From positions 136,084-200,083 of the forward strand of contig JAUILU010000002.1 of NCBI GenBank assembly GCA_030432905.1: DNA of 64,000 nt, read 5' to 3'. This DNA comes from Phycisphaerae bacterium (GTDB lineage Bacteria > Planctomycetota > Phycisphaerae > Phycisphaerales > UBA1924). The position numbers were made by a program, and so were the translations under genes. This document shows, one piece after another, positions 9,804 through 56,271 of this stretch (position 1 is its first letter; each line of letters starts with the position of its first letter). Below the pieces are notes generated by a model. That model searched no databases. It saw only the letters and a program-made list of their open reading frames with translations, and had not been told where the DNA came from.

Positions 9804-11429
9804 TTACACCAGCGTGACGAGCCAGACGATCATCAGGAAGATGGTCGAGTTGTGCAGCGCGTGCGCGGTCATGCACCCAACCAGCGAATCGCGCCACTCG
9901 CGCATGAACGCGAACGCCCACCCGAGCGTGATGATCGGCACAAGCATCAGCATGTCGTATTGGTGCAGGAACCCGAAGAGCACCGCGCTGAACAGGCCGC
10001 TGAAGATGAAGATGAACCGGCTGCGGAAGTGGCGGAAAAGCGCACCTCGCATGATGCACTCCTCGACCAGCGGCGCCCAGACCATCATCAGCGAACCCAG
10101 AACCGCGACCGTCACGAAGTCCGAACTCTCGATCAGCTCGATGATGGGGTTACTCATCGGGGCTTCGACAGCGGTCTCGCCGAACTCGTTCGATTCAAAC
10201 AACAGCGAGCGCATCGCGATCAAGACAAGCGAGACCGCGGCCGCAGCGAAGTACAGAGGTACGCACGCCAGGTACGTCAGCAGCCCGAACCAGATCTCCT
10301 TGAACACACCCTCGGGCGCGACCAGGCCCATGTCCCGGCGCCAGCGCCCGAGCGAGACGCCCCGCACCATCGGCCAGAAGATCGAGAGCACCACGAGCCA
10401 CTGCATGCCGTAGAGCACAGACTCGGGCAGCGTGCCGACGAGCGCATCCGTCGTGATCTGCAGAAGCATGAACATGCCCACGAACACCGCGAAGGTCTCG
10501 AGGTACACGCTCCCGCCGACCGCGGGCGGCTTGAACCGCATCTTCAGCTTGCCCATCGCCAGAAGAATGATGCCAGTGATCAAGAGCCCGAACCCGCCGA
10601 GCAGCGCGACGACGATGATCAAACCAAAGAGCACGAGGAACGCGAGCAGCCCGCCGCCCCCGCCGACAAGATCGCGCCGTTCTGGGTCGTCGTTGTTCTT
10701 GCCGTAGGTCAGCGCGAGCTTGCCGTGCCAGCCGTGGTGGTCGATGAGGCGCTGCCGTTCTTCGTCGGTGAGTTCGATGCCGTCGTAGATGTTGGCGATC
10801 AGGTGCGCATCCTCGTAGACCGCCCGCCGATATTCCGGTTCGAGCTGTTCGCTGTTCTCGGATAGATAGATGATCGTGTACGAGAGCCGGTCTTGCGCTT
10901 CTTCTTCGCTGACGACCTCGGCCGCCACGATCGCGCCGCGGAGCATCTCGTGCGGCGAGACGCTCATGTCGTCGATCGCGTCCATGTAGCCCGCGTCTTC
11001 AAGAGCCGTCGCGCCCTGGTTCTCGTCGATGTCCATCATCAGGTGGTGGAACTTCACCGTGAACCGCGAGAGCAGCCCGAACGTGTCGGCCCGGCCCGAG
11101 GGCACGATCTCCTGCGCACTCGCCTCGGCTTCCGCGGTCGCCTTGATGACCGAGCTCTGCTGGGTGAACACCACGAACGCCAACGCCGGGATCAGGAGCA
11201 ATAGCGTGATCCACCCGGCCTTGCGAGAGCCGGGGTCGGGCACGCGGTCCTCGGTGCCGGGCTTTAGGCGTCGGCCCCGGGCGGGGAGGTAGCCCTCGAT
11301 GTCGTCTGGGAGCTGGTCGTCCCGGACGATCGGCCGCTGATCGGGTTGGTAGGGGTCGTTGTATTCGTCCATGGCGGGTGTTTGGCTCCGGTTTGTCAGT
11401 CTAACCATCGGGCCTTGGGCCGGTGGCAA
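9804..11429 (-). CDS. CPBP family intramembrane glutamic endopeptidase (CAAX protease/Abi type) with a long N-terminal extension
   Basis: 541 aa. The C-terminal third carries VEECIMRGALF (EExxxR), FGFLH (FxxxH) and HALHN (HxxxN). Confidence 0.8.
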   Translation of the reverse strand: MPPAQGPMVRLTNRSQTPAMDEYNDPYQPDQRPIVRDDQLPDDIEGYLPARGRRLKPGTEDRVPDPGSRKAGWITLLLLIPALAFVVFTQQSSVIKATAEAEASAQEIVPSGRADTFGLLSRFTVKFHHLMMDIDENQGATALEDAGYMDAIDDMSVSPHEMLRGAIVAAEVVSEEEAQDRLSYTIIYLSENSEQLEPEYRRAVYEDAHLIANIYDGIELTDEERQRLIDHHGWHGKLALTYGKNNDDPERRDLVGGGGGLLAFLVLFGLIIVVALLGGFGLLITGIILLAMGKLKMRFKPPAVGGSVYLETFAVFVGMFMLLQITTDALVGTLPESVLYGMQWLVVLSIFWPMVRGVSLGRWRRDMGLVAPEGVFKEIWFGLLTYLACVPLYFAAAAVSLVLIAMRSLLFESNEFGETAVEAPMSNPIIELIESSDFVTVAVLGSLMMVWAPLVEECIMRGALFRHFRSRFIFIFSGLFSAVLFGFLHQYDMLMLVPIITLGWAFAFMREWRDSLVGCMTAHALHNSTIFLMIVWLVTLV

Positions 11430-11641
11430 TTGACACTCGCCGCGGGCGCTCTATGCTTTGGACCCGCAGAACCGGATGGTGGTCCGGATTCTGAGGGCTT
11501 GGAAGTCAAAAACATGGGAATCGGCTCTGAAAAGGCCCGTTTCCCCCGCCCCGCCCGGTAGGCGGCGAGATGAACGACCCTCGGCCGATGCGCGTTGATT
11601 CGCAGCGTGTCTCTGTCAAGGGCATCAAGAGGAGCGGCCCC

Positions 11642-17331: not shown

Positions 17332-19299
17332 TTACCCCTCCTGCCGCATCAGCCGGGTAAACGACGCCACGAACAGTGTCGCGATCACCCACCCCATCGC
17401 GATGTGGAAGGGGAGGTAGACGTTCTTGATGAAACCTCCCCATGTACCCCGCCCGGATGGCATCCAGTGGCCTTCCTGATGGAAGCTCACCAGCGGAATC
17501 AACGTGTCCGCGGAGTAGATCAGCGAGTTGTACTTCGGCAGTGATTCAACCCACTCCTCCCGTGGCTCGGCACTCCACTCCTTCAGCGCAAGCGACTGAA
17601 CCGGCTGCATCCGCCCATCGGGCAAGGGCATCGCGGAGTCATAGAAAATCACGAAACCAATCAGTATCAGAGCCGCCATCCAGCCCACGGCTCTCCACCT
17701 TGCGTAGCCGTGCCCGACTCCCCACTGGTAAAGCCGTTGTGTGATGCGAACACGCCACATCTCGCATTGCCCAGCCAGCTTTGGATTGCGCTTTAGAACA
17801 ACCCACACAACAAATGGCGGCAGGATGACGGATGCACAGACAAGTCTAGACTGAAACGAGCCAGCCCAAAGCGACAACAACGCGACAAGGCACGCGACGA
17901 CCCAGCCGAGAAAGAACTGTGTGCAGACAACTCTGTGGTCAGCTTCAGCATCACGCCGAGCTTGTTCTACAAGACCCGGAATCCGTCGAACGGCGCATGT
18001 TCGAAGCACGGTGTTTGCGTCTTCTTCATGGCCTTGCTTTCTCAGGACATCTGCCAAGTGCCGGTATGGCTGAGGGTTTAGAACATCAGAGTCTGCCGTG
18101 TTGTCTTGGTTGGCGAGCCATTTCAATCGGTTTCGCGCATCCATCGGCGATCCGGCCTCGATCGCGCCGTAGTTGCACCCCGAGAGCAAGATATTCTCGG
18201 GCCATTCGAAGCCCTGTCTGGAATCCCCACTCGGCGCATCGTCGAGGGTGCCAATCTTGCTCTGCCGCAGGTCGAGGGTGCCAATGTGGTTCTCGTGGCC
18301 CTGCATGACCAGTGTGCCCTTGACGGTGCCGCCCCTCAAATCCAGCGCGCTCTTTCCCGCGTTGACGAACCGGCCGCCGGTGCATTCGAGGTAGCCTCCG
18401 ATCTCGGTGCCCAACAGCCGGACTTTGCCCTCGGCGCGGAGGCCGCCGCTGAGGAAGACGCTGCCCGCGACCCTGACGTGGTCGACGGCGATCGCGTCGC
18501 CTTCCGTGTTGACGAACCGCCCGCCGGCGCAGTCGAGGGTGCCCCCGATCGTGGCACCGAGCAGCCTGACCTCGCCCTCGGCGCGGAAGCCTCCGCGGAG
18601 GAAGACGCTGCCCGCGATCCTGGCGCGGTCGGCCGCGATCGCGTCGCCTTCCGTGTTGACGAACCGCGCGCCGGCGCAGTCGAAGTCGCCTCCGATCGTG
18701 GCGCCGTGCAGCCTGACCTCGCCCTCGGCGCGGAAGCCGGTGCGGAGGAAGATGTCGCCGGTGACCCTGGCGCCGTCGGCCGCGATCGCGTCGCCGTTCG
18801 TATTCCCAAGAAGCGTTTTGTGCAGAGCGATAAATTCACAACTGGACTGCCAAAGCACCATCCCGCAGCGGAGTACGCACGAACTAAGCAACAACGGCCT
18901 AGGCACCGCGCAGAATCCCAGATCAAGACGATCCTCAATCGTTGCCGCTACAACACGCACACCAAACGGATCGATGCACTCCGTGGCGTCTGAATCTGAG
19001 ACCAGCCAGCGGACAACGACTGCCGAAAGCAGCACCTCCGGCACGGGTCTGTCGCTGGCCGGCGGCAACGGTTTGTTTGCCTTGATCGCTGCGTTTTCCG
19101 CCGCGACCGCCTTATCAAGATTGTCTTTGTAGTTGGGTGTGCCAGCCGTGAAATCGGCCTTAACACCGATCGCTGCACACCGGAGCATCTTCCGCTCGTG
19201 TTTGGTCAGTTTGCCGGGACCAAACTCCGCCTCGGCGAGTTCTATCAGCTTGTCAACTCGTTTCTGTTGCCCGGGCGTCAGATCATCCGTGTCGCTCAT
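17332..19299 (-). CDS. membrane protein with tandem 49-aa beta-helix-like repeats and a C-terminal multi-TM domain
   Basis: 655 aa. Three consecutive units of GDAIAAD.AR..G..FLR.GFRAEGEVRL.GATIGG..DCAG.RFVNTE, then 4-5 hydrophobic helices. No family recognised. Confidence 0.7.
   Translation of the reverse strand: MSDTDDLTPGQQKRVDKLIELAEAEFGPGKLTKHERKMLRCAAIGVKADFTAGTPNYKDNLDKAVAAENAAIKANKPLPPASDRPVPEVLLSAVVVRWLVSDSDATECIDPFGVRVVAATIEDRLDLGFCAVPRPLLLSSCVLRCGMVLWQSSCEFIALHKTLLGNTNGDAIAADGARVTGDIFLRTGFRAEGEVRLHGATIGGDFDCAGARFVNTEGDAIAADRARIAGSVFLRGGFRAEGEVRLLGATIGGTLDCAGGRFVNTEGDAIAVDHVRVAGSVFLSGGLRAEGKVRLLGTEIGGYLECTGGRFVNAGKSALDLRGGTVKGTLVMQGHENHIGTLDLRQSKIGTLDDAPSGDSRQGFEWPENILLSGCNYGAIEAGSPMDARNRLKWLANQDNTADSDVLNPQPYRHLADVLRKQGHEEDANTVLRTCAVRRIPGLVEQARRDAEADHRVVCTQFFLGWVVACLVALLSLWAGSFQSRLVCASVILPPFVVWVVLKRNPKLAGQCEMWRVRITQRLYQWGVGHGYARWRAVGWMAALILIGFVIFYDSAMPLPDGRMQPVQSLALKEWSAEPREEWVESLPKYNSLIYSADTLIPLVSFHQEGHWMPSGRGTWGGFIKNVYLPFHIAMGWVIATLFVASFTRLMRQEG
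18361..18801 (-). repeat. 3 x 147-bp in-frame tandem repeat inside the CDS 17332..19299
   Basis: The marker gttgacgaacc recurs at 18361, 18508 and 18655, an exact 147-bp period. Units are highly similar by eye. Confidence 0.85.
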
Positions 19300-19320
19300 A
19301 CCCGCAGCATAATCAAAAAA

Positions 19321-22785: not shown

Positions 22786-23718
22786 CTATTGCGGACATCC
22801 AAGGTTGTAGTTGGTGATCCACGCCGAGAAGTCGGTCGGCGTGCACAGCTCGTCGCCGTTCTGATCACAGCCCGGCGCGCTGCTGTTGTACGCGCCAATC
22901 CATGCCGAGAAGTCCGTCGGAGTCAGGTCGCCGTCGCCGTTGACGTCCGCGATGCACTCCGTCGAAGCCAGCGCCTCGTCGTAGTACCGCACATACAGCT
23001 CGTCGGCGAACACCGCGAACACCGCCGCGGTGTAGTGAATCTCGTCAACAAAGGTGAAGTCCGGGCTCGGCTGATCGATCCGCGGCAGCGACGGGTCGCC
23101 GGGAGGGATGCCAAGGTCCGGGATGCCGTAGGTGATCTGTGCAAACCCGTAGTAGCCCTCGTAGGTGTACCCGGGGATCGTGTCCGCCAGCGCCGCGAGC
23201 CGGCTGTCGAGGTCGAGCATGACCTCGTTCACGCGCGCCGGGTCGAAGAACAGGATCGGCTGGAGGAAGTCGTACCCCGAGTGGTACACCTCGATATCTG
23301 GCCGAACCTGGAGCATGTGCCGAACGATCGCCTCCGTGTCGCCCACGACACGGTTAAGCAGTTCGTTGACGATCGAGTCGTTATTGATGAACAGAATCCC
23401 GTCGAACAGATCGTTGCCCCCGATCGAAAGATGCGCGATCTGCGCATCCGGGTTCGCGTTGAGCACACTCTCGATGTACGGCAAACCTATAGAAGGATCC
23501 GACGACGCCAGCTCGTCCGCCCGTGCACCCTCGACGCCCTCGTTGAGCACCGCGATGTCGCTGTGCCCCTCGTCGATGATCGTCTGACGCAACGGCCCCG
23601 AGAGCCGGTTCGCCCACGAGTCACCGAAAACGATGACCTCCGAGCCCTGCGCCGCCGCGCCGAACCCAAACAGAACGCCCGCGGCAACAGCACCAATCCT
23701 TCTGAGTCTCATGCGCAC
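22786..23718 (-). CDS. SGNH/GDSL hydrolase with C-terminal GC-type dockerin module
   Basis: 310 aa. Signal peptide, block [11 protein letters not shown], later GGNDL. C-terminus [54 protein letters not shown]. Confidence 0.8.
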
Positions 23719-24092: not shown

Positions 24093-24542
24093 ATGCAAAC
24101 ACAGAACCCAGTCGTCGCCGCGCCAGGCGACGAAGTCCGCCTCAACATCGGAGGCTCACAGCTTGTCCGCAGAATTCGGAGCGAAGACACCGACGGCGCA
24201 TTCAGTGTCGTCGAGTTCGTCTCCCAGCCCGGCGAGGGCGTCGGCATGCACACGCACGACAACGAAGACGAACTCGTCTACCTGCTCGAGGGCGAGATCG
24301 AGGTCACTGTTGGTCAATCAACCATGACCGCCACAGCCGGCACCTCGGCGCTGCTGCCAAAGGGCATCCCCCACGGCTACTCGAACACGGGCAGCACACC
24401 CTCCAGGCTTCTCGCGGTCCTCATGCCGGGCAAACTCGACACGTTCTTCCTCGCGCTGAACCGAGAACTCGCGGCAGACCGCGAGCACGAAGAACACATC
24501 GCGCGTCTCTGCCAGAGCTTCGGCCTCACATTCCACAACTAA
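24093..24542 (+). CDS. cupin domain protein
   Basis: 149 aa. PGEGVGMHTHDNEDELVYLLEGEIEV...PKGIPHGY fits the two cupin motifs. Confidence 0.8.
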   Translation: MQTQNPVVAAPGDEVRLNIGGSQLVRRIRSEDTDGAFSVVEFVSQPGEGVGMHTHDNEDELVYLLEGEIEVTVGQSTMTATAGTSALLPKGIPHGYSNTGSTPSRLLAVLMPGKLDTFFLALNRELAADREHEEHIARLCQSFGLTFHN

Positions 24543-24579: not shown

Positions 24580-25479
24580 ATGAACTTTGTAACACCGCTT
24601 CTGGTCTCGACCTGCATCGCCCTGACACCGAACGCCACCGCACCGTCCTCGCACGATGCGTACGCGGTCACGCGTGTGACGCAGAACGCCGAGCCGACAC
24701 ACAGGATGCACACGATCCGTGTTGGGATCTTCGGGTACAGCCCCGTCTCCTACATCACCAACAACCGCGCCGAGCCAGGCTCGCCCGCGTTCGCCGCGGA
24801 GCACGAGGGCGTCACCTACTTCTTCACCAACGAGCGCCAGAAGCAGGCATTCATCAAGAATCCCGAACGCTTCATCCCGGCATTCGGCGGCAACTGTGCC
24901 TTCGGCTGCTCCGTCGACTCCATCTTCACACCAGACCCCACGAGCTTCCTCGTCATCGACGGCAGAACACACCTCTTTCTCAAGAACGACGAGGTCAACG
25001 CAAAGCAACTCTGGCTCGATGCCGACAAGAAAGAAGTCAGCAAAAAAGCCAACGCCTACTGGTCATCAAAGTCCACAAGCAAGGCCTACACCGGCGGGCG
25101 AAACGTCCCCTCAAGCGGCGTCGGGCTCGAGGGCTACAGCCCGGTCTCATACTTCACCAAAGGCAAGCCCGAACAAGGCGACCCGAGATATGCTGCGACA
25201 CACAACGGCGTGACCTACCACCTCACCTCGCAGCGCCAGCTCGACCTATTCAACAAAAACCCAGACAAGTACGAGCCCCAATGCGGCGGCTGGTGCGCCT
25301 TCGGCATGACCGTCGAGGACAAGTTTCCCGTCGATCCCACCAAGTTCCGTGTCATCGATGACAAGCTGTACCTCTACCTCAACAACGACGACATCAACGC
25401 CCACGAACTCTGGGGCGAAGGCAACGACAGTGAACTCATTCAGAAGGCCAACAAGCACTGGGACAATGTCGGCAGCTAA
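24580..25479 (+). CDS. secreted protein with two tandem YHS-type domains
   Basis: 299 aa. Two copies of GYSPVSY....G.P......H.GVTY..T..RQ...F.KNP..(F/Y).P..GG.CAFG. Family name is from memory. Confidence 0.65.
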   Translation: MNFVTPLLVSTCIALTPNATAPSSHDAYAVTRVTQNAEPTHRMHTIRVGIFGYSPVSYITNNRAEPGSPAFAAEHEGVTYFFTNERQKQAFIKNPERFIPAFGGNCAFGCSVDSIFTPDPTSFLVIDGRTHLFLKNDEVNAKQLWLDADKKEVSKKANAYWSSKSTSKAYTGGRNVPSSGVGLEGYSPVSYFTKGKPEQGDPRYAATHNGVTYHLTSQRQLDLFNKNPDKYEPQCGGWCAFGMTVEDKFPVDPTKFRVIDDKLYLYLNNDDINAHELWGEGNDSELIQKANKHWDNVGS

Positions 25480-25511
25480 CTAGCCGCGATTCCTGATGCA
25501 CAGCCAACGGC

Positions 25512-25544
25512 AACGCCCCGCGCCTCCTCCAGGCGCGGGGCGTT
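25512..25544. terminator. strong hairpin between convergent genes (possible bidirectional terminator)
   Basis: AACGCCCCGCGCC tcctcca GGCGCGGGGCGTT, perfect 13-bp stem, weak U-tract. Confidence 0.5.
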
Positions 25545-25577
25545 CTGTTAATCCCTCTCCTCGTCTTTGCCGCAGAA

Positions 25578-26345
25578 TCAGCAGCCTGCGTTGTAGTTCC
25601 CAACCCATGCGGTAAAGTCAGTCGGCGTGCACGCGCCGTCGCCGTTCTGGTCGCACTCGGGCGCGCCGCTGTTGTACGCGCCGATCCACGCGGAGAAGTC
25701 CGTCGGGCTGAGCATACCATCGCCGTTGACGTCGGCAAGACACAGGTTCGGCTCGCCCGCCTGGAAACGCACGGTGACCGGCGTCGATTGCAAGTACAAG
25801 CCGTTGCTGTCCCAGCCCACAAACGTCACGTCGTACAAACCCTCGTTCTCGATGAAGCAAAGCTGCGCGTGCTGGTGCCCGCCGATGCCGACGTTGTAGC
25901 TCCGGTCCTCGCGCGTCGCGCCGTCGCTGTCGGCCTCAACTGTAAACACGCCCGGCCCCGAGGTGTGAACCCAGAGCACCTTCGCTTCCGGGCCCGCGAG
26001 CCTTTGCACATCGACGATCTCGAAGTTGAAATCGCCTCCCGCGAGCCGACCGGTCGAGAAGTAGAAATCACTCGTCAGCACCGCTTCCTGCCCGCCGAAG
26101 TAGCCAGCGAACGCGCCGCTGGGGATCTGATCCGCGATCTGGATGACCGCTATCTCGCCGTCGTACATGAGCCTGTCGTCCTCGATCGAGAACAGCGTCT
26201 CGCTGCCCAGATACCCAGCGCGTATCACGGTTTGCGAGAGCCCGGGCGTGGGCATCGTGTCCACGGTCATGTGGAAGTGATCCTGCGCGGATGCGCCGGT
26301 GGTTAGCGTGAGAGCCGCACATGCGATCAGTTTCTTCGTGTCCAT
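25578..26345 (-). CDS. secreted His-motif protein (family A) ending in a GC-type dockerin
   Basis: Start at MDTKKLIAC (26345), signal ...GASAQ, DHFHMTVDT, LTSDFYFSTGRLAGGDFNFEIVDV, GIGGHQHAQ. C-terminus [54 protein letters not shown]. Confidence 0.75.
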   Translation of the reverse strand: MDTKKLIACAALTLTTGASAQDHFHMTVDTMPTPGLSQTVIRAGYLGSETLFSIEDDRLMYDGEIAVIQIADQIPSGAFAGYFGGQEAVLTSDFYFSTGRLAGGDFNFEIVDVQRLAGPEAKVLWVHTSGPGVFTVEADSDGATREDRSYNVGIGGHQHAQLCFIENEGLYDVTFVGWDSNGLYLQSTPVTVRFQAGEPNLCLADVNGDGMLSPTDFSAWIGAYNSGAPECDQNGDGACTPTDFTAWVGNYNAGC

Positions 26346-26436
26346 CGTCCGTCCTCCGACGTGTGTGGTGTGTGCAATCAGATTCAAAGGCGCCCGGTCC
26401 GCTCTCACAGACCGAACGCAAGAGGGTTAAAGCGAA

Positions 26437-27072
26437 TCAGCGGCGACGGCGCACGCCCGCGACGCCCGCAAGCCCGAGCAGCGCTGCCGAGGCCGGCGCT
26501 GGGACCGCGTTGATGCGGAGCGTGACCGGCGCGGAGTCTGCGTACACGCCGTTGGCGTCCCACGCGACGAGCATCAGGTCGTAGGTGCCGAGCCCGTCAA
26601 AGCCGGTGACCTGCCCGTGCGGGTGGTTGCCGACACCGACGCCGAACGAACGATCGAGCCGGGTCGCGCCGTTGGATGATGCGACAACGTCGAAGCCCTC
26701 TCCGCCGCCGTGCTCCTCGAAGCCCCAGATCGCCTCGGTGGCGCTGCCGCCGTCAACAGCCGAGAAGCCGACGATCTCGTAGTAGAAATCGCCCCCGTCG
26801 AGGTTGCCGCTGGCGGCGTAGAAGTCGCTGGTGATAGTCGCGGTCTGGCCGAACGAGTAGCCGCCGTGGAAGTGGTCGGTGTGGTAGTGGGCGATCTCGC
26901 CCAGATAGGTGACATAGCCCGCGCCGTTGATGCCCCAGTCGGGCTCGCTCGCAAAGAAGCCCGCTTCGATGCTTGTGGTTGTGCCGTCGGTGTTGACGGT
27001 CAGGTGGTTGTGGTCCTGCGCCGACGCCGAGAACGCGAGGCCGGCGACGAGGGTGGTGAGAACAGTCTTCAT
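26437..27072 (-). CDS. secreted His-motif protein (family A) ending in a PEP-CTERM sorting signal
   Basis: 211 aa. Signal ...FSASAQ, DHNHLTVNT, ITSDFYAASGNLDGGDFYYEIVGF, GVGNHPHGQ. C-terminus VPAPASAALLGLAGVAGVRRRR. Confidence 0.8.
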   Translation of the reverse strand: MKTVLTTLVAGLAFSASAQDHNHLTVNTDGTTTSIEAGFFASEPDWGINGAGYVTYLGEIAHYHTDHFHGGYSFGQTATITSDFYAASGNLDGGDFYYEIVGFSAVDGGSATEAIWGFEEHGGGEGFDVVASSNGATRLDRSFGVGVGNHPHGQVTGFDGLGTYDLMLVAWDANGVYADSAPVTLRINAVPAPASAALLGLAGVAGVRRRR

Positions 27073-27129
27073 TTTGATTTCTCTCTTTCGTTTACGAATT
27101 GAAAGCGTGATAGCAGTTGATCTGCGGGC

Positions 27130-27816
27130 CTACTCGCCCCCAACGGGGTTGAACAGAGGTCGGCCCGACTCGAATTTCTCTCGCACGCGCTCCCATGAAA
27201 GGGATTCCGCGTGCCCGTCTGTAAACATGAAGTTCGACGACGATTCGCTGTGACGTGTCACCGCGACCTGCGGCGGGATCTCCTCCGCAGCTTCCCACCC
27301 CACGGAGTGCAGGTGGTCCGTGTCGCCCGTGCCCGCCCACTCAACCGCGTACGCGGTCTCGCTTGGGAATGGCACCTGATGGATCTGCCGAATCGCACGC
27401 CGGCGACCCCCCGGGAGCGTCTCGCCAGAGATCGGGTTGTAGTCGATCCCCGGCGTCAGCTTCTCGAAGTGGTCGTTCGTCACGTAGCTAAACGGCCTGA
27501 ACTCGAAGTCGTCGTCCTCCGGGCACTCCTTGATCGCCGGGTCGAGCCCGTAGCCCTCCTCCAGCACATCGAGCCACGAGTCCAGAATCGAACCCGTCGA
27601 ATGACTCGACAGAGGAAAGTGCCCGTCCCAATCGTTCTGGTACAGCGTGACCGACTGGCCCATCGAGCGCATGTTCGCCAAACACCTCAGCGAACGCGAC
27701 GACTCGCGCGCCTTGCCGAGCGCCGGGAGCAAGATCCCGATCAGGAGCGCAATGATCGCGATCACGACCAAGAGCTCGATCAACGTAAACCCGCCGACGC
27801 GCCGTGTGAGCTGCAT
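27130..27816 (-). CDS. DUF1559-type prepilin (type II secretion/type IV pilin-like N-terminal cleavage-methylation domain)
   Basis: 228 aa. GGFTLIELLVVIAIIALLIGILLPALGKARE at the N-terminus and FMFTDGHAESL near the C-terminus. Confidence 0.85.
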   Translation of the reverse strand: MQLTRRVGGFTLIELLVVIAIIALLIGILLPALGKARESSRSLRCLANMRSMGQSVTLYQNDWDGHFPLSSHSTGSILDSWLDVLEEGYGLDPAIKECPEDDDFEFRPFSYVTNDHFEKLTPGIDYNPISGETLPGGRRRAIRQIHQVPFPSETAYAVEWAGTGDTDHLHSVGWEAAEEIPPQVAVTRHSESSSNFMFTDGHAESLSWERVREKFESGRPLFNPVGGE

Positions 27817-27903
27817 GGCTCACTCCTTCGCCTTGGCCGACGCACGCAACACGCGCGCACCGGCTCTCCCAGTGACCAATCCGATTGGAACAACAAACCG
27901 AGT

Positions 27904-28329
27904 TCACACAACCGGTCGGGGCGGCGGCGGCGGCACCGAGAGCGCCGCAAAGACGTTCCGGCGCGCAACAAACACCGGCTCGGCGCAGAACCGAACCCGT
28001 GTGTCTGCCCTTGTCTCAAACCCGAGCACGACCGGCGCTTTCACGCCATCAAACCAGCCCGCGCTCAGCGAGCAGTCGATCGGCTTCCACGCCGGCCCGT
28101 CGGGCTGAGATTCGGATTCGGGCTCGTCGCTCTGGTCGTCGCCCGAAACCGGCGGCTCGCAGCAGCACACGTCCTCATCCGAGCACGAGACACACGCGCA
28201 GTAGTCAGAATGCGTTGGCCCTGCTTCGCCGCCGCTGGCCCAGAACACCGGCAGCGCGGGCATCGCCACCAGCGCGTACCACAGCGCCAAGAGCGCCGTG
28301 AACCAGGTTGTCCGGGCAGTGTGTCTCAT
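27904..28329 (-). CDS. small Cys-cluster membrane protein (cassette A)
   Basis: 141 aa. One N-terminal TM helix, CACVSCSDEDVCCCE, an acidic linker (DDQSDEPESES), and a tail PPPPPRPVV. Homologous in layout to 30767..31225. Confidence 0.55.
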   Translation of the reverse strand: MRHTARTTWFTALLALWYALVAMPALPVFWASGGEAGPTHSDYCACVSCSDEDVCCCEPPVSGDDQSDEPESESQPDGPAWKPIDCSLSAGWFDGVKAPVVLGFETRADTRVRFCAEPVFVARRNVFAALSVPPPPPRPVV

Positions 28330-28384
28330 ACCAATCCCGCCGGCAGGCTTTCACCCGCCGGCGAGTCGTCCTTTCAATGCGAGG

Positions 28385-29089
28385 TCAGCAGCCCGCGTTG
28401 TAGTTCGTGATCCACGCCGAGAAGTCGGTCGGCGTGCACGCGCCGTCGCCGTTCTGGTCGCACTCTGGCGCGCCGCTGTTGTACGCGCCGATCCACGCGG
28501 AGAAATCCGTCGGGCTGAGCACGCCGTCACCGTTGACGTCGGCGAGGCAGTCAACAGGCACGACCCACTCGAGCACGAGCTCCGCGTCGTCCCACCCCGC
28601 CAGCGGCTCGCCCGTCGTCGCGTTGCCGACGTACACGCGGTACGTCGCCGAGTACTCGCCCGGCTCGGTCGCCGAGTACCAGTTGTGTGTCATCGCGCCG
28701 TTCCACTGCCACACATCGCTCGACCCGTCGGTCCCGAGGATCGGCGCGTAGCTGAACGCGTCGTACACGCTCAGCCCCTCGCTCGTGCCGAGGTTCTCGA
28801 CGAAAACGCCCGAGCCCGCGGGCAGGTTGAAGAACCCGTTGGCGAGCCAGCCGAACCTGCCGCTGTAGTACGTGTCATCAAGAACACTCGCGGCACCCGA
28901 GTACATCTCGCCCGGGTACCGAAACAGTTCTACCGGCCCGGTCACCGGCGTCTCGTAGTCGATGTGGATCGCGCTGCCGTCCTGCTCGATCAGCAGGTGG
29001 AGCATCGAACCCCCGAGCGTGGGCGCCTGCGCCACGCACACGCCAGCGCCAGCCGAAACAATCGTTGCCAAGATCAGTTGCCGCATCAT
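28385..29089 (-). CDS. secreted protein (family B) ending in a GC-type dockerin
   Basis: Start MMRQLILATIV (29089). YAPILGTDGSSDVWQWNGAMTHNWY and VYVGNATTGEPLAGW. C-terminus [54 protein letters not shown]. Confidence 0.75.
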   Translation of the reverse strand: MMRQLILATIVSAGAGVCVAQAPTLGGSMLHLLIEQDGSAIHIDYETPVTGPVELFRYPGEMYSGAASVLDDTYYSGRFGWLANGFFNLPAGSGVFVENLGTSEGLSVYDAFSYAPILGTDGSSDVWQWNGAMTHNWYSATEPGEYSATYRVYVGNATTGEPLAGWDDAELVLEWVVPVDCLADVNGDGVLSPTDFSAWIGAYNSGAPECDQNGDGACTPTDFSAWITNYNAGC

Positions 29090-29178
29090 CGTGCGTCCTC
29101 CTGTGCATGTCTCAAACAATCTCAGAATCCGCCCGATCAGCCTTCACCGACCGGGCGAGGAATCACATCAAGTGTCGC

Positions 29179-29817
29179 TTACCGGCGACGGCGCGCCGCG
29201 ACCAAGCCACCAAGCCCGAGCACAGCAGCCGAGGTCGGCGCAGGAACCGCGGTCCAGTCGAGCGTCACGCTGTCAGAGCCGAAACCCGCAAGCGGCGCGC
29301 CGGTGACCGCGTCGCCGAGGTACACGGTGAACGACGCCTCGTAGTCGCCCAGCGCCGGGGCCGCGACCCACGGGTGGTGCATGTTGCCGTTCCACTGCCA
29401 GTTCGCGTCGGAACCATCGGTGCCAAAGAGCGGCGCGTAGGTGTGGTTGGCGCGCATCATCCGCATGCCGCCCTCGTAAATCTCAAGCCCCGCGGTCGAG
29501 CTGGTCATCTCGACCCAGATCGCCGAGTCCTGCGGCAGCGAGATGAACCCGTCTGCGAGGAAGCCGTACTGGCTCGAGATGTACATCCCGTCGAGCACAT
29601 CGGCGGGCGAGGTGTGCGCATCGCCGTAGTTCACCATGGGCAGCGGCGTCGGCTCCGGGTTGACCAGGTGGTCGATCTCGACACCAACGTTCGTGCCGTC
29701 GAACGTGATCAGCACGTGCTTCATCGCGCCCTCGAACTGGGGCCAGACCTGCGCACCGGCGCTCCCGGCGGCGGCAACAACCGAAGCAACACAAACAACT
29801 CTCGTAGCACTGAACAT
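29179..29817 (-). CDS. secreted protein (family B) ending in a PEP-CTERM sorting signal
   Basis: Start MFSATRVVCVAS (29817). YAPLFGTDGSDANWQWNGNMHHPW and VYLGDAVTGAPLAGF. C-terminus VPAPTSAAVLGLGGLVAARRRR. Confidence 0.8.
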   Translation of the reverse strand: MFSATRVVCVASVVAAAGSAGAQVWPQFEGAMKHVLITFDGTNVGVEIDHLVNPEPTPLPMVNYGDAHTSPADVLDGMYISSQYGFLADGFISLPQDSAIWVEMTSSTAGLEIYEGGMRMMRANHTYAPLFGTDGSDANWQWNGNMHHPWVAAPALGDYEASFTVYLGDAVTGAPLAGFGSDSVTLDWTAVPAPTSAAVLGLGGLVAARRRR

Positions 29818-29916
29818 AGCTAGCTCTCTTTCTCTGTCTCTTTCATCCGGGCAGAACACAGCCCGGCCCATGTCAATCGAATAAACAACCAAGGCTTGTA
29901 CGGGCGCAGAACGGGC

Positions 29917-30678
29917 TTACCAGCCCCGAGGATCCCAGAGGTCCTTCTTGCGCTCGGCACTGAACGTGTCTTCGTACTTCATGACCGTCGCGTGGCCGTC
30001 AACAAACACGTACCCCTCGCCCGGCTCGAATCGATCGGTCGCGACCGAGCTGTTTGGGGCGCTGTTGTTCTTCCACGTGTGCGCCATGTGGTGGTCTGGT
30101 GTTCTTCTGCTCTCTTCATCGCCGAGCGACGCGAACAGAATGGTCTCCGCGGGCCTGGATACGGTCCTCTGGTACACGAACGGCTTGGCGTCGTCGAGCG
30201 AGCGCTTCGACGGAGCGATCTCCCGCCACTCCAACTCGAAGTACACACTCTGGCCGAAGCTGTTCACCGGGACGTTTGTCACGGCGATATCCCCGGGCAT
30301 CTGAACCCGCGAGTCCAGCGGCGAGCGGTAGTTCTCGTTGACGACAGCGAGCCACGCCTCTTCTTCGGGCGGGTCCAGCGGATCGAACGCGTCGCCCGAG
30401 AAGTACTCGTACAGCGCGTAGTTCCAGGGGAAGCCGTTCTCGAACCAGTTAAGACGAGCCGAGTGCGAGGTGTTCTGGATCCGACCCTTGTTCGTGTCGG
30501 CATAGAACGTGCTGGCCATCCCGAGATCGCGCAGCCGCGACATCGCGAGCACACCGCGTGCGCGGGTGCGCGCCTTGCCGAGCGCCGGGAGCAGAATCCC
30601 GATCAGCACAGCGATGATCGCGATCACCACCAACAGTTCTATAAGCGTGAACCCACAGGCTCGCTTCGTGCGTGCCAT
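29917..30678 (-). CDS. DUF1559-type prepilin (second copy)
   Basis: 253 aa. CGFTLIELLVVIAIIAVLIGILLPALGKART, and C-terminal YVFVDGHATVM. Confidence 0.85.
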   Translation of the reverse strand: MARTKRACGFTLIELLVVIAIIAVLIGILLPALGKARTRARGVLAMSRLRDLGMASTFYADTNKGRIQNTSHSARLNWFENGFPWNYALYEYFSGDAFDPLDPPEEEAWLAVVNENYRSPLDSRVQMPGDIAVTNVPVNSFGQSVYFELEWREIAPSKRSLDDAKPFVYQRTVSRPAETILFASLGDEESRRTPDHHMAHTWKNNSAPNSSVATDRFEPGEGYVFVDGHATVMKYEDTFSAERKKDLWDPRGW

Positions 30679-30766
30679 CGGCGTGCGCCTCCGTTGAGTC
30701 CGCCGCGCACATCGCGCGCAACAGACAGCCTCGTACCCAGAAGATCAGAACAACAGATCACAAAGA

Positions 30767-31225
30767 TCAGCCGAACGATCGGGGAGGCGGCGCGGGCACA
30801 TCAAGCTTGGTCAGGGATTCGACCTCAACACCGAGCGCGACAAGACGCTCGCCCTTGAGCTCTGCAAGATTCAGCAGCCGACGCTCGCCGGCGTCAAACA
30901 CCGGGGGGACAGCCGCGATCAGCCATTTCAGTTCGGGCGTGCAGCTGATCGTCATCAGCGCAAAGCCGGTGTCGCTGTCGTCCTGCGAAACGTCATCTTC
31001 TTCGGTTGCCGCTTTCGCAGCACAGCAGCACGACCCGCTCGTCGAGCAAGACGAGGCCTCGCCGCAGGAGCAGGCGCCGTCGCCCGCCGTGTCGGCAACC
31101 GAGAAACCGATGTTCGAGAGGAAGCTGGCGACGGGTCTCGGCATCGGGACCGCCGCGAGGCTCGCGCACAGATACAGCCCAATCAGCGTGGCGATCACAC
31201 CCCTAGATTGAACCATCCGACGCAT
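30767..31225 (-). CDS. small Cys-cluster membrane protein (cassette B)
   Basis: Start taken at MRRMVQSRG (31225; track ORF starts at 31276). TM helix, CSCGEASSCSTSGSCCCAAK, acidic linker (EEDDVSQDDSD), tail PAPPPRSFG. Confidence 0.5.
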   Translation of the reverse strand: MRRMVQSRGVIATLIGLYLCASLAAVPMPRPVASFLSNIGFSVADTAGDGACSCGEASSCSTSGSCCCAAKAATEEDDVSQDDSDTGFALMTISCTPELKWLIAAVPPVFDAGERRLLNLAELKGERLVALGVEVESLTKLDVPAPPPRSFG

Positions 31226-31351
31226 AGCGCTCCGTTCCAAGCTGCACCCGGCGGCGCAGAACGCGCCACGGGCCATCTATCTATACGACAGGCTAACGCA
31301 AACAGATCGCCTGATCTGCATCATTTTGTCCGGTTTCACAAGAACAGCCCG

Positions 31352-32335
31352 CTAACCGCCCAAGAGATCCGCCAGCACCGCCATCCGGACCAGCGTCCCC
31401 GCGGAGACCTGTTTCCGCACGACCGAGTTCGGGCCGTCGGCGACCGTGCCGTCCATCTCGAGGCCCCGGTTCATGGGTCCGGGGTGCATGATGACGGCCC
31501 CGGGCTTCATCCCGCCCGCTCTTCGCTCGGTCAGGGCATAGAGCGAGCGATATTCTCGGACCGATCCAACGCCCGGTGGCGAGCCCGGTTTGTCCGAGCC
31601 GCCCGAGCCGTGCCGCTCGAACTGGATCCGCAGCATCTGCACAGCGTCGAGTTCGCCCAGCACCGCATCCAGATCGCTGGATACCTCGCAGCCGAGCACT
31701 TCCAATGACCTCGGCGCCAAGGGCGCGGGTCCGACACAGATCACCCGCGCGCCGAGTTTGGTCATCGCGATGATGTCCGACCTCGCCACGCGTGAGTTGA
31801 CGATGTCGCCCACGATCCCGACGGTGATGCCCGACAGATCGAACGACGATTCGCGTCCGCCGCCGAGCGCTGCCGCCAGCGCGTAGACGTCGAGCAAACC
31901 CTGCGTCGGGTGCTCGTGCGCGCCGTCACCCGCGTTGATGACCGGCACGTGCACATGCTTTGCGATCAGCTCCGCCGCGCCCGCGGCCCCGCTCCTGACG
32001 ACCAGGGCGTGCCCGCCCGTGGCTTCGACCGTCAGCGCTGTGTCCACGAGCGTCTCGCCCTTGGTCACGCTCGAGCCCGGCCCTGTCAGGTTGGTGATCC
32101 CCGCGCCAAGGTTCCTCGCCGCCAGCGAGAAACTCACGCGCGTCCGGGTCGAATCCTCAAAGAACAGGTTGCACACGCTTTTGCCCGAGAGCCTCGCGCG
32201 AAGCTCGGCGTCCTGCTTGGGCATGCCGGTGCAATCGTCGAACGACCGCGCCAGGGTGAGCAACGACACAAGCCTCTCGCGGGTCTGGCCCGCCAGATCG
32301 ATCATGTTTCGGCTGTGATCGATCGCGTGTGTCAT
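31352..32335 (-). CDS. pyrB: aspartate carbamoyltransferase catalytic subunit
   Basis: 327 aa with FFEDSTRTRVSF, HPTQ and HPGPMNRG motifs. Confidence 0.92.
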   Translation of the reverse strand: MTHAIDHSRNMIDLAGQTRERLVSLLTLARSFDDCTGMPKQDAELRARLSGKSVCNLFFEDSTRTRVSFSLAARNLGAGITNLTGPGSSVTKGETLVDTALTVEATGGHALVVRSGAAGAAELIAKHVHVPVINAGDGAHEHPTQGLLDVYALAAALGGGRESSFDLSGITVGIVGDIVNSRVARSDIIAMTKLGARVICVGPAPLAPRSLEVLGCEVSSDLDAVLGELDAVQMLRIQFERHGSGGSDKPGSPPGVGSVREYRSLYALTERRAGGMKPGAVIMHPGPMNRGLEMDGTVADGPNSVVRKQVSAGTLVRMAVLADLLGG

Positions 32336-43663: not shown

Positions 43664-43831
43664 TGCCCAGATTGGGGCCAACACCCACAATGCGGGCTAT
43701 GGGTCGGTCGTCCTGTGCTCGGCGCTTAGATCGTGTGAAGCCAGAACGAACGCTCAAATTGCTCTGAATCAGCGCGCAACTTCATGTATGCTGGAATGCG
43801 TCGCCGAACAAAGACACACGGAGCCAACGCC

Positions 43832-44536
43832 ATGACGCACGCACGGATCATTGTCGCCGCCTCGATCGCATGCACAGCCGCCAGCGCCTCGGCCCAGAAC
43901 TTCTACGTCACCGACCAGACAACATTCACCGCCGGCCTGACCGACTTCGCAGTCGAAGACTTCGACAACGGCGCCAACAAGGTGCTCCCGGATGAGACGC
44001 TCGTCTTTGACAATCTGACCGTGTCGTTCTCAGCAACCGCCGGGGGCCACACGCTCGGCGACGACCTGTTCTGCAGCGGCACCTCGGGCGGGGGCAACAT
44101 CGCATCCGCCCTCATCACATTCGATAGGCCAGTGATCGCCATCGGCGCCAACCAGTTCGACAGCTACACATCCATCGGCGCTGGTGTCGATGGCGTCTAT
44201 CACGACAGCTATCAGATCGATGTGGTCAGCCCATTCCCGGGTGCCGAGCTCGGTGACTTCTGTGTCGTCGAATTCACCGAACCGATCACCGAACTCATGT
44301 GCTACCCATTGACCAGCTTCAGCATGGCATACGAGATCGACAACCTCGTCATCGTCTACGCACCCGAGCCCTGCACAGCCGACGTCAACGGCGACGGCAT
44401 GCTCACACCAACAGACTTCACCGCGTGGATCGGTGCATTCAACACAAACGCCCCAGAGTGCGACCAGAACAGCGACGGCGCATGCACACCAACCGACTTC
44501 ACGGCATGGGTCGGAAACTACAACGCGGGCTGCTGA
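43832..44536 (+). CDS. secreted protein (family C) with GC-type dockerin
   Basis: Start MTHARIIVAAS. Signal ...ASASAQ. NFYVTDQTTFTAGLTDFAVEDFDNG is shared with 48104..48796. The dockerin module is 44372-44536. Confidence 0.75.
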   Translation: MTHARIIVAASIACTAASASAQNFYVTDQTTFTAGLTDFAVEDFDNGANKVLPDETLVFDNLTVSFSATAGGHTLGDDLFCSGTSGGGNIASALITFDRPVIAIGANQFDSYTSIGAGVDGVYHDSYQIDVVSPFPGAELGDFCVVEFTEPITELMCYPLTSFSMAYEIDNLVIVYAPEPCTADVNGDGMLTPTDFTAWIGAFNTNAPECDQNSDGACTPTDFTAWVGNYNAGC

Positions 44537-44687
44537 CTGTAAACGAACCTACCGCGTCCCATCCTCCCGGTGGCGGTGCAAAGCAACCGATCTGAAATCA
44601 GTCACGGTTTTGGTCTGATTTTCGTCGATTCGGTGTTCAACCCAAACCGGACCTCGGTTAGCCTGCGCCCTTGCACACACATCTTTC

Positions 44688-46148
44688 GTGAGGGTTCTGA
44701 ACATGCGTATCACCACCGCCGCTTCCGCTTTCCTTATCGCCGGGTCCGCAGCCGCCCAGTCGTCGTCGCACCGAACCGTGACCGATGCGCAGGGCGTATC
44801 GCTCGAGCGCACGCTCAACCCGCTCAGTTCCGCGGGCACGACCGGCCCGCTGATCCAGGAAGATCTGCTCTGGGCATACACCGACGCGGTCTCCATCCCG
44901 AGCTCGGTCGCGCTCGCCGACGGGGGCGGCGAGGCGTGGGTCGCCCACTCGCTCAACGACGAACGAATCAGCAGGTTCTCGGTCGCCGGCGGCAACACGC
45001 CCGCGTCCATGTTCTCGATCCTCGCAGAGAACCCGAACTACGTCGGTGTCGCGGCCTCGGCAGACGCGTCGCGCTGTGTGGCGATCTCAGAACCCGCATC
45101 GGGCCAGATCGTCGCACGAGCGTTCTCCGCAGCCGGGGGCAACTCGACCGACTGGACCTACACATTCGACGCCGCATACACCGACACGCGCGAACGCTCA
45201 GTCGCGGTCAACGCCGACGGCTCACGCACCGCCGTCACCGCATACGACGGCGCCAACACACTCCTCGTCATCCTCGACGGCGAAGGCAACGTCGTCAACA
45301 CAACCACGGTCGCCGGCTTCTCGCTCCTCGTCGACATCGATGACTCGGGTGACCGAGTGGTCGTCACCGCCGGCGCTGTGGCGCGCGTCTACGACACCGC
45401 GACACTCACCGAACTGCACGCACTCACCGTGTCCGGCGCTGGCGGCTACGCACGTATCTCACGCGACGGCTCGGCGATCGCCGCCGGCGGGTTCAACGTC
45501 AGAGCAGCCCGAGAGGTCGAGGGTGTCTGGCAAACCGCCTACTCGGGAACCGGGTCACAAGACTGGTTCGGCGGCGTCTCGCTCAGCGGCGACGGAGAAA
45601 CACTCTTCGCGGTCAGCCACCGCTACGGCGACGGCTACCTCACCAACAGCCACCGCGTCGTCGACCTCACAACCGGCGCGGTCGTCGCGTCGTCCAGCTA
45701 CACAGGCGCCGGCGGGCTGCAGAACTCTGCCATCGGAGCCGAGTCGAACAGCGACGGCACGCTCTTCGTCGCCGCCTCGTGGGGCGATGCAGCCAACACC
45801 ATGCCCGAGGTCCGCGTCTACGACCGAGACCTGAACCTCGTCGATTCGATCGACACCAAGGGTTCGCCCTTCGCGATCGATCTCAGCAAGGACGCCGCCA
45901 CACTCGCGGTCTCGACCAAATCGATCCACGCCAACGACAACGGCAGCGGCGGCACCACCTACATCTATCAACTCGCCTCCGACTGCCCCGCCGACGTCAA
46001 CGGCGACGGCATGCTCAGCCCAACCGACTTCACCGCGTGGGTCGGCGCCTTCAACTCGAACGCGCCCGAGTGCGACCAGAACAACGACGGCATGTGCACA
46101 CCCACCGATTTCTCTGCCTGGGTCGGCAACTACAACGCGGGCTGTTAA
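44688..46148 (+). CDS. secreted repeat (beta-propeller-like) protein with GC-type dockerin
   Basis: 486 aa (alternative start at 44703). Signal peptide and repeated strand-rich segments. The dockerin module is 45984-46148. Confidence 0.75.
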   Translation: MRVLNMRITTAASAFLIAGSAAAQSSSHRTVTDAQGVSLERTLNPLSSAGTTGPLIQEDLLWAYTDAVSIPSSVALADGGGEAWVAHSLNDERISRFSVAGGNTPASMFSILAENPNYVGVAASADASRCVAISEPASGQIVARAFSAAGGNSTDWTYTFDAAYTDTRERSVAVNADGSRTAVTAYDGANTLLVILDGEGNVVNTTTVAGFSLLVDIDDSGDRVVVTAGAVARVYDTATLTELHALTVSGAGGYARISRDGSAIAAGGFNVRAAREVEGVWQTAYSGTGSQDWFGGVSLSGDGETLFAVSHRYGDGYLTNSHRVVDLTTGAVVASSSYTGAGGLQNSAIGAESNSDGTLFVAASWGDAANTMPEVRVYDRDLNLVDSIDTKGSPFAIDLSKDAATLAVSTKSIHANDNGSGGTTYIYQLASDCPADVNGDGMLSPTDFTAWVGAFNSNAPECDQNNDGMCTPTDFSAWVGNYNAGC

Positions 46149-46214
46149 TCTGTACAAATTCTCGCTTGTTTCTTGAGATTTGTCCTGTCATTCTGGACCG
46201 CTCTCTGACACAAT

Positions 46215-46237
46215 AAGCCCCTGCAAAGGGGGCTTTT
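46215..46237 (+). terminator. possible terminator hairpin between two dockerin-protein genes
   Basis: AAGCCCC tgcaaag GGGGCTT followed by TT. Ends 3 nt before the next ATG. Confidence 0.4.
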
Positions 46238-46239
46238 CC

Positions 46240-47949: not shown

Positions 47950-48103
47950 TTACCACTTTCGATGGGGAAAATGGGACTGTTGCGTCATTTTTTTAGAATA
48001 TGCCCAGTTCAAGCCCGTCAATCTATTTTATCTTGTATACTTACTCTGAGTACCAGCAATGGTCGGCGTCACGGGTTCTTGTGGGCATAAATGAAGAACA
48101 ACA

Positions 48104-56266: not shown

Positions 56267-56271
56267 CGGCT

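Follow-up and report, generated by a model that had tools for sequence, protein, structure and literature searches.

Eight minus-strand genes at positions 25578–31225 of a 64,000-nucleotide stretch from a Phycisphaerae bacterium (contig JAUILU010000002.1; the whole stretch is called the window here) are two instances of a conserved, lineage-specific module, not recent tandem copies. Each instance consists of four genes in the order A-B-C-D. A encodes a Cys-rich small membrane protein, B a prepilin-type protein, and C and D two paralogous secreted passengers that carry C-terminal sorting signals. The passenger domain is of type T1 in one set (A1, B1, C1, D1) and of type T2 in the other (A2, B2, C2, D2). 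The order A-B-C-D is found in about 80 (at least 80) species-level genomes of Phycisphaerales and in several metagenome contigs, and very probably represents a real and functional module of the cell envelope. The classes of the components are known (prepilin-like, PEP-CTERM, dockerin); the four-gene combination, the A family and the T1 domain lie outside Pfam and NCBIfam, and the last two are uncharacterised protein families. Full-text literature searches gave no description of the four-gene combination, in agreement with an earlier first-pass annotation of this stretch, which knew of no described system of this composition.

All eight genes reported by the first-pass annotation are present in the open reading frame listing, at the positions given in Table 1. 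Their third-position G+C content (0.76–0.88) is in the range of genuine genes in this genome. The close spacing described earlier was confirmed; the gaps measure 55–99 bp, however, and not the 24 bp that had been given as the lower end. A scan for promoters and terminators found no more sites than in shuffled sequence and is hence uninformative on operon structure. No Rfam RNA or riboswitch was found at the gathering threshold in the window, or at E ≤ 1 in positions 25300–31500.

Recurrence of the module in Phycisphaerales

Genomes were scanned, one per species, with a 28-sequence T1 alignment as query, and the 80 loci returned were annotated with purpose-made hidden Markov models (HMMs) and motif rules. 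In 77–79 of these 80 species genomes a B gene is followed by two T1 paralogs. The B-C-D order is strict in nearly all loci examined. About 80 species have the genes in conserved order, on the same strand and with conserved spacing, at sequence identities down to approximately 40%. Distant A proteins were recognised by position and motifs only. An A-like open reading frame (hydrophobic at the N-terminus, Cys-rich motif, C-terminal [VIL]P-x-PPP[RK]) ends within 300 nt upstream of 81 of the 86 module B genes. The recurrence of the gene order bears out the earlier proposal of a functional module as opposed to chance adjacency.

A third homolog search, which used an artificial alignment of T1 and T2 passengers fused row by row and in which the matches were split by per-family HMMs, gave 184 proteins; every one of them comes from Phycisphaerae or Planctomycetota. 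Of the matches listed (120 of 184), about 99 are T1 and 21 are T2. T1 is widespread and T2 is limited to a subclade. Complete T2 sets are found in five other loci (L007, L010, L012, L090, L092). A T1 set directly followed by a T2 set, as in the window, is found in L010 (RHLH01000001) and L012 (OZ245827). L090 and L092 are metagenome contigs, and L090 has no T1 set upstream. Contigs with homologs of A1 show a single T1 set in the arrangement pyrB, A, B, C, D and a gene for a GDSL-dockerin protein; A-B-C-D lies at pyrB in L001, L003 and L005.

Housekeeping genes make up the conserved neighbourhood of the module, namely pyrB, gmk (for guanylate kinase), a GT9-like gene and Mrp. Inheritance is thus vertical, and the module is part of the core of the order. 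Horizontal transfer of the T1 set as a mobile island was considered and rejected because of this conserved synteny. One locus, L049 (JANQQE010000011.1), carries a complete Phycisphaerales module in a metagenome-assembled genome labelled Alphaproteobacteria; the label is probably a result of mis-binning or mislabelling.

Relation between the two sets

The first-pass annotation had viewed the eight genes as an old tandem duplication of one cassette. The pattern of similarities does not agree with this. Within the sets the passengers of C and D are paralogous by BLASTP (C1-D1, 37% identity, E-value = 1.5e-39; C2-D2, 42% identity, E-value = 1.9e-37). Between the sets, the similarity of C1 to C2 is limited to the PEP-CTERM tail of 29 residues (66% identity, E-value = 7.8e-08), and the 81-residue alignment of D1 with D2 (D1 positions 163–234; 69% identity, E-value = 9.5e-35) consists of the dockerin and approximately 18 residues before it. 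A1 and A2 share 25% identity over 118 aa, which is most of their length (E-value = 0.002), and B1 and B2 share 30% over the full length (E-value = 2e-14). Thus the sets are alike in A, in B and in the sorting signals only; the T1 and T2 passengers show no detectable similarity and are either unrelated or have diverged beyond recognition.

A simple duplication of the cassette would be expected to leave C1 closer to C2 than to D1, and this is not seen; simple or recent tandem duplication was therefore rejected. Two further observations speak against it. B2 shows 80–81% identity with the B proteins of other T2 sets and 23% with the globular part of its neighbour B1, no more than with T1-type B proteins of distant species (21–35%). 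In addition, a T2 set is found without an adjacent T1 set (L090). An ancestor that already had a C/D pair would likewise have left C1 nearer to C2 than to D1. Since the opposite is found, either the C/D pair would have arisen twice or both passengers would have been replaced. In both cases the architecture of a PEP-CTERM paralog followed by a second paralog has been selected twice.

DNA repeats between the sets are limited to segments that code for signals: the dockerin (165 nt, 89% identity), the pilin N-terminus (97 nt, 82%) and the PEP-CTERM (86 nt, 74%). The dockerin-coding ends of D2 (25578–25742) and D1 (28385–28549) follow passenger sequences without detectable similarity, and both show 74% DNA identity with the dockerin of the nearby GDSL gene. 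The similarity of the D1 and D2 dockerins suggests local gene conversion or a constraint from a shared partner.

C and D: paired passengers and their sorting signals

C1 and C2 both end in VPAP, a hydrophobic stretch and RRRR. The PEP-CTERM tail described earlier for C is thus recognizable by eye in its architecture. By the models, C2 is just above the TIGR02595 cutoff of 16 bits (16.1 bits) and C1 below it (13.6 bits), and both are below the PF07589 cutoff of 20.7 (14.4 bits for C2, 13.5 bits for C1). Several homologs carry the NCBI name "PEP-CTERM sorting domain-containing protein". The C-termini of D1 and D2 match the GC-type dockerin model NF041540 with 41.6 and 39.9 bits (cutoff 29), which, together with the paralogy of the passengers, supports the earlier description of D as a paralog of C with a GC-type dockerin. 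D1 lacks the YEGGMR loop found in C1, as do all second-position paralogs.

Across genomes, C and D form separate ancient orthologous groups, with a median identity of 47% for C-C and 45% for D-D. C-D identity is 37%, both within and between genomes, and concerted evolution of the two genes was rejected on this ground. In L044 (9854 to approximately 11080) a natural fusion of the T1 C and D is found, a 407 aa protein (P0017) with a 3-residue linker and a dockerin-like tail. The fusion suggests that C and D act together as a pair. A second protein, P0090 (449 aa), contains two T1 domains as well.

The first T1 paralog (C) carries a PEP-CTERM in 80 of 84 cases. The second (D) carries a PEP-CTERM in 47 cases, a dockerin-type tail in 30 and neither in 6, and in other species the dockerin of D may be an ordinary dockerin-like tail and not the GC type. 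The proposal that one passenger fold is displayed by two anchoring routes therefore describes this clade but does not extend across species. The conserved feature is the paralog pair, not the two anchoring routes. That one architecture occurs with two different passengers, and with a C/D pair in each case, argues for a functional requirement for the pairing and for the PEP-CTERM on the first member.

B, a prepilin-type protein

B1 and B2 match the prepilin N-terminal models PF07963 (33.4 and 30.0 bits; cutoff 21.2) and TIGR02532 (27.7 and 23.7 bits; cutoff 16.3). The cleavage/methylation site is canonical, including Glu5, and the FTLxE sequence is conserved at 97–100% over 86 B orthologs. In the same 86 sequences H, D, S, DH..H.W, DGH and W.P are conserved at 95–100%, and the globular domain of B1 contains the family-invariant His and Asp residues together with the DGH motif.

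B had been annotated as a DUF1559 prepilin. The prepilin N-terminus and the DGH motif were found again, but assignment to DUF1559 (PF07596, SBP_bac_10) was not upheld: B2 gives 16.3 bits (E-value = 0.011, profile positions 2–42 only) against a cutoff of 23.3, and B1 gives no match at E ≤ 0.1. Neither protein matches the H-X9-DG model TIGR04294 at E ≤ 0.1. Inspection by eye shows H-X10-DG in B2; the corresponding His, present in 82% of the family, is missing from B1, and the DG is conserved at 96–100% in the family. The resemblance of B to the H-X9-DG domain is genuine, short of demonstrated membership in TIGR04294. Against the GspG, GspH, GspI and GspJ models B is far below the cutoffs (TIGR01710, 27.7 and 31.0 bits against 88.85), and these matches are restricted to the N-terminal helix. 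The same holds for the Verru_Chthon cassette protein D model TIGR02596, where B1 and B2 score 23.3 and 24.0 bits against a cutoff of 70 with the N-terminal 26–32 residues only (E-value = 3e-5 to 6e-5).

A, a Cys-rich small membrane protein

A is a small membrane-anchored protein whose periplasmic part bears a Cys cluster and a [VIL]P-x-PPP[RK] end. A1 and A2 both display the N-terminal hydrophobic segment, the CCC-containing Cys cluster (here CxC...CCC), the acidic linker and the PPPR tail that the first-pass annotation had pointed out. The Cys cluster is CSCGEASSCSTSGSCCC in A1 and CACVSCSDEDVCCC in A2; the C-terminal tails are VPAPPPR and PPPPPR, respectively. The start of A1 at 31225 agrees with that of its orthologs, whose N-terminus is MRRLVQS. 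In the family there are six invariant Cys residues within a 16-residue cluster and a seventh further on. Distant variants read FPCxxHxCGCx5CxxxCCC and WSVCGQxMCxC...CPLC; A keeps the Cys cluster in every lineage and its exact spelling varies.

HMM scans of A1 and A2 matched no Pfam or NCBIfam family, and the A profile found nothing significant among PDB sequences. Homologs of A1 form only 14 clusters among 5.8 billion proteins, all from Phycisphaera or Phycisphaerales. Those of A2 form only two, one of which sits on a 3-kb contig that carries a complete T2 set (L007). A search of 1.84 billion representatives with the A-family profile gave only 18 matches, so the family appears small and fast-evolving.

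A comparison of the A tails (window positions 30767–30800 and 27904–27940, and the A genes of L010–L089) shows an end of the form [VIL]P[TAS]PPP[RK] plus 1–3 residues. It is reminiscent of the VPAP with which the PEP-CTERM signal of C and D begins, but lacks the membrane helix that follows there, and the A tail may have the same binding partner as that signal.

Structure and conserved residues of the passengers

AlphaFold2 models of the passengers are all-beta and very confident for C1 (mean predicted local distance difference test, pLDDT, 95.8; predicted template modelling score, pTM, 0.89) and a moderately confident all-beta sandwich for C2 (pLDDT 81.8, pTM 0.82). The order of secondary structure elements and the placement of the conserved motifs are similar in the two models. 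T1 matches no Pfam or NCBIfam family, and sequence searches of the PDB gave nothing significant for T1 or T2. T2 shows repeated sub-threshold matches to TIGR03769 (E-value = 4e-4), TIGR03773 (E-value = 0.036) and the PEP-CTERM family NF038129. D2 matches choice-of-anchor M (NF038134) with its C-terminal half only (19.7 bits, E-value = 7e-4; cutoff 55). NF038134 and TIGR03769 are each matched weakly by 2 of 22 T2 members and by no T1 member. A remote relationship of T2 to choice-of-anchor M is possible. Domains of the TIGR03769, TIGR03773 and choice-of-anchor M type are linked to metal-type ABC transporters of actinobacteria. Profile-profile comparison of T1 with T2 is not significant, with a probability of 0.4% for shallow and 1.3% for deeper alignments.

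In 167 T1 domains, the Met and the His of the first motif are each present at 99%, a Thr and the pattern W.W.G.M.H.W (in full T..S...W.W.G.M.H.W) at 97–100%, and the MxH and MxHxW motifs at 98–100%. In the numbering of the C1 passenger the motif residues are M14/H16 and M128/H130/W132. In the model the MxH lies at the first strand and the MxHxW at the third strand from the end. In T2, H132 is invariant and H3, H5 and H134 are conserved at 90% or more; here one HxH lies at the start of the first strand and the other just before the third-from-last strand of the model. The N-terminus of mature C2 is predicted from the sequence to be QDHNH, after an AxA cleavage site. We take the Q-D-H N-terminus of T2 to be the X-X-His form of an amino-terminal Cu(II)- and Ni(II)-binding (ATCUN) site.

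Proposed function and alternatives

The nearly invariant residues of T1, T2, B and A look like metal ligands. Met/His sites for Cu(I) are established in PCuAC and CusF, with a nearby Trp in CusF, and the PCuAC motif is H(M)x10Mx21HxM (PMC7558416). The conservation of Met, His, Cys and Asp, this precedent, the like placement of the two motifs in the T1 and T2 models, the sub-threshold matches of T2 to TIGR03769, TIGR03773 and choice-of-anchor M, and a YHS-family gene near the T2 set favour metal binding by C and D. C and D would be exported by Sec, brought to the cell surface by the sorting signals at their C-termini, and form a pair, probably a heterodimer. Their metal site would be built from two short motifs, each located at the beginning of a beta-strand or immediately ahead of it: a Cu(I)-like site from MxH and MxHxW in T1, and a Cu(II)/Ni/Zn-like site from the two HxH motifs and the ATCUN-type N-terminus in T2. 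B, anchored by its pilin helix and possibly part of a short pseudopilus, and A, in the inner membrane, would be the partners on the membrane side and would receive, deliver or sense the ligand. The second set would provide a second ligand specificity. This explanation as a whole, with its metal (possibly copper) mechanism, is put forward tentatively, as possible rather than probable. An envelope-spanning relay, in which a C/D heterodimer captures the ion (Cu(I) for T1; Cu(II), Ni or Zn for T2) and passes it to a His/Asp site of B and on to a thiolate cluster of A, is decidedly unlikely.

Several results weigh against metal binding. None of the eight proteins matches a metal-binding family of Pfam or NCBIfam above threshold, and the conserved neighbours of the module include no transporter, exosortase, prepilin peptidase, ATPase of a type II secretion system (T2SS) or type IV pilus (T4P), or copper gene. 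A Foldseek search of the PDB with the T1 and T2 models gave nothing at E ≤ 1e-3, and hence no copper protein as a neighbour; the best template modelling scores for T1, approximately 0.35–0.40, are to unrelated proteins. Solved members of the known copper chaperone folds (CusF, PCuAC, CopC and the like) were matched by the passengers neither in sequence nor in structure. With the deeper alignments, hhalign aligns T1 and T2 over 33 columns only (E-value = 0.041). The N-terminal Gln of T2 could cyclise and so block the ATCUN site, and the periplasmic Cys residues of A could merely form disulfides.

The conserved Trp and Gly residues in a beta-sandwich would suit glycan binding, too. C and D may then be lectin-like or similar to carbohydrate-binding modules (CBMs), be displayed by way of their PEP-CTERM or dockerin signals and bind a polysaccharide or the cell's own exopolymer, with B as stalk or anchor and A as assembly factor. 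Both passengers are all-beta sandwiches, and T1 has three near-invariant Trp residues and conserved Gly, Thr and Ser, which are common in carbohydrate-binding platforms. The T2 profile gives a weak match to CBM74/Sas6 (E-value = 0.022), the top non-significant Foldseek results include the fimbrial subunits or adhesins CooA, CfaE and AggB, and a GDSL/SGNH-type esterase that carries a dockerin is conserved downstream of the module in this clade. PEP-CTERM proteins are classically tied to exopolysaccharide loci, and dockerins to glycan-degrading assemblies, which also counts in favour. However, invariant pairs of Met and His are atypical of CBMs, no CBM or lectin family of Pfam or NCBIfam is matched significantly, and apart from the GT9-like gene in a subset of loci no glycan-metabolism genes are conserved nearby. 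The Cys cluster of A and the His/Asp cluster of B are left unexplained, and glycan binding appears somewhat unlikely.

A dedicated pseudopilus or secretion module is the alternative nearest to the export idea of the first-pass annotation. With B as a (minor) subunit of a short pseudopilus resembling that of type II secretion, C and D as its specific cargo or tip and A as a membrane docking or assembly factor, it would account for the canonical prepilin site of B with its Glu5 and for the strict B-C-D order. It would also agree with the gene content of the 64-kb window, in which prepilin genes and convincing PEP-CTERM genes, two of each, are confined to these sets. We judge it unlikely. C and D come with Sec signal peptides and sorting signals of their own, B is far from the GspG/H/I/J families, the invariant Met, His and Cys residues are not explained, and neither the scanned window open reading frames nor the conserved neighbours include a secretin, an assembly ATPase, a platform protein or a prepilin peptidase. 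Finally, the genes may have no common function and be unrelated envelope genes that are alike merely through frequent sorting signals. GC-type dockerins are frequent here, with seven such proteins in 64 kb, and the DNA similarity between the sets is confined to signal-coding segments. But the conservation of order, strand and spacing in about 80 species, the C-D gene fusion in one genome and the same architecture built twice around different passengers make this highly improbable.

To our knowledge, genomes of Planctomycetota contain dozens to hundreds of prepilin-like proteins of the DUF1559/H-X9-DG kind, and we know of no function for them. B, a relative of this expansion, keeps its position and its three partners throughout the order, which makes it tractable for genetics and biochemistry. 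The main value of the module is this fixed-partner handle on the pseudopilin expansion, together with a confidently modelled domain that has no solved relative. Should metal binding be true, the module would be a new metal-handling route in abundant marine bacteria. Were the relay true as well, it would give a first defined function to an H-X9-DG/DUF1559-like pseudopilin of the large Planctomycetota expansion, and T1 would be a previously unseen metal-binding beta-sandwich.

Surroundings of the two sets

The window is ordinary chromosome, with genes for a sigma factor, TatC, DnaA, L13/S9, peptidases, a histidine kinase, a rhodanese, ClpB, a flavoprotein and DnaE, and with pyrB and gmk. Among the open reading frames of the 64-kb window scanned with Pfam, none was recognised as an exosortase, a prepilin peptidase or a component of a T2SS or T4P.

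The genes of the two sets and their neighbours are listed in Table 1. The product of the YHS gene carries Cys where selenoprotein forms have Sec. The cupin and YHS genes lie beside the T2 set here and approximately 1.8 kb from it in L010 (15905–17296), and are absent in L012; a YHS-domain gene is thus near the T2 set in two of three assessable genomes. The two genes are possibly associated neighbours outside the core of the module. The GDSL gene directly follows D of the T1 set in the relatives L001, L003, L005 and L014–L017, and in the window it is separated from D1 by the T2 set and the YHS and cupin genes. Further away, four consecutive plus-strand open reading frames (43739–48796) end in near-identical GC-type dockerins.

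Table 1. Genes of the two A-B-C-D sets and other features of the window
Feature	Position	Strand	Description
A1	30767-31225	minus	152 aa; first gene of the type-1 set
B1	29917-30678	minus	253 aa; prepilin-type protein with G|FTLIELL... N-terminus, type-1 set
C1	29179-29817	minus	212 aa; secreted T1 beta-sandwich passenger with PEP-CTERM-like tail
D1	28385-29089	minus	234 aa; T1 paralog of C1 with GC-type dockerin at the C-terminus
A2	27904-28329	minus	141 aa; A-type protein, first gene of the type-2 set
B2	27130-27816	minus	228 aa; prepilin-type protein, type-2 set
C2	26437-27072	minus	211 aa; secreted T2 passenger with PEP-CTERM tail
D2	25578-26345	minus	255 aa; T2 paralog of C2 with GC-type dockerin
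YHS gene	24580-25479	plus	Two-domain YHS (seleno)protein family, NF041384, 191 bits
Cupin gene	24093-24542	plus	Cupin_2, E-value = 3.5e-19
GDSL gene	22786-23718	minus	GDSL/SGNH-like hydrolase with GC-type dockerin
GC-dockerin open reading frame	43739-44536	plus	
GC-dockerin open reading frame	44619-46148	plus	
GC-dockerin open reading frame	46177-47949	plus	Beta_helix match
GC-dockerin open reading frame	48095-48796	plus	

Other observations concern the window at large. A 548-aa membrane protein (9804–11450, minus strand) has an Rce1/CPBP-like intramembrane protease domain; for proteases of this family, a role in the processing of C-terminal sorting signals has been proposed. Two long open reading frames, 17332–19320 (minus strand, 662 aa) and 54029–56266 (plus strand, 745 aa), have a coding-like composition and no Pfam match. 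The GC skew changes sign near 57–58 kb (cumulative minimum; region of approximately 56000–58000), and dnaA (3730–5211, minus strand) lies approximately 52 kb away. The skew change may mark a replication origin or terminus, or the boundary of a rearrangement.

Relation to known systems

The PEP-CTERM/exosortase system (TIGR02595, PF07589) is similar in that the C-terminus of C, and of many D proteins, combines a Pro-rich motif with a hydrophobic helix and a cluster of Arg residues. It differs in the motif, which is VPAP here instead of PEP, in the scores of C1, which stay below the model cutoffs, and in that no exosortase or exopolysaccharide locus is adjacent to the module. We know of no fixed partnership of PEP-CTERM, prepilin-type and Cys-rich membrane proteins in that system. 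The GC-type dockerin domain (NF041540) is shared by D1, D2 and five other proteins of the window; in the module, however, the dockerin is merely an anchor, and D elsewhere uses an ordinary dockerin-like tail or a PEP-CTERM.

B resembles the DUF1559/H-X9-DG proteins (PF07596, TIGR04294) of Planctomycetota and the wider Planctomycetes-Verrucomicrobia-Chlamydiae (PVC) group in its prepilin N-terminus and in a globular domain that ends in ...DG[H/S]. It is below the DUF1559 cutoff and does not match TIGR04294, and unlike those large paralog families it has a fixed position, the same three partners and additional invariant His and Asp residues. The Verru_Chthon cassette (TIGR02596–TIGR02600) is likewise a conserved multi-gene cassette of PVC bacteria with prepilin-like proteins, but its composition is different and the similarity of B to it is that of the pilin helix only.

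The choice-of-anchor M, TIGR03769 and TIGR03773 proteins have in common with C and D a secreted passenger of approximately 170–185 aa with alternative C-terminal anchors, and are weakly matched by T2. The T2 matches are far below cutoff and T1 shows none. The actinobacterial versions adjoin metal-type ABC transporters of the "anchored repeat" kind, whereas here C and D are accompanied by a prepilin-type protein and a Cys-rich membrane protein.

Two further systems are analogies. The Cu(I) chaperones CusF and PCuAC are comparable in function only, as small beta-rich secreted proteins with Met/His ligands and, in CusF, a Trp, features that recall the MxH...MxHxW of T1. No similarity in sequence or structure was detected, the spacing of the motifs is different, and T1 is sorted to the surface and always occurs as a paralog pair. 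The Isd heme relay, a system of Gram-positive bacteria, uses paralogous proteins with NEAT domains that two different sortases anchor. The A-B-C-D locus has no homology to it and contains no membrane transporter, but both systems combine paralogous beta-sandwich proteins in one locus with different sorting signals.

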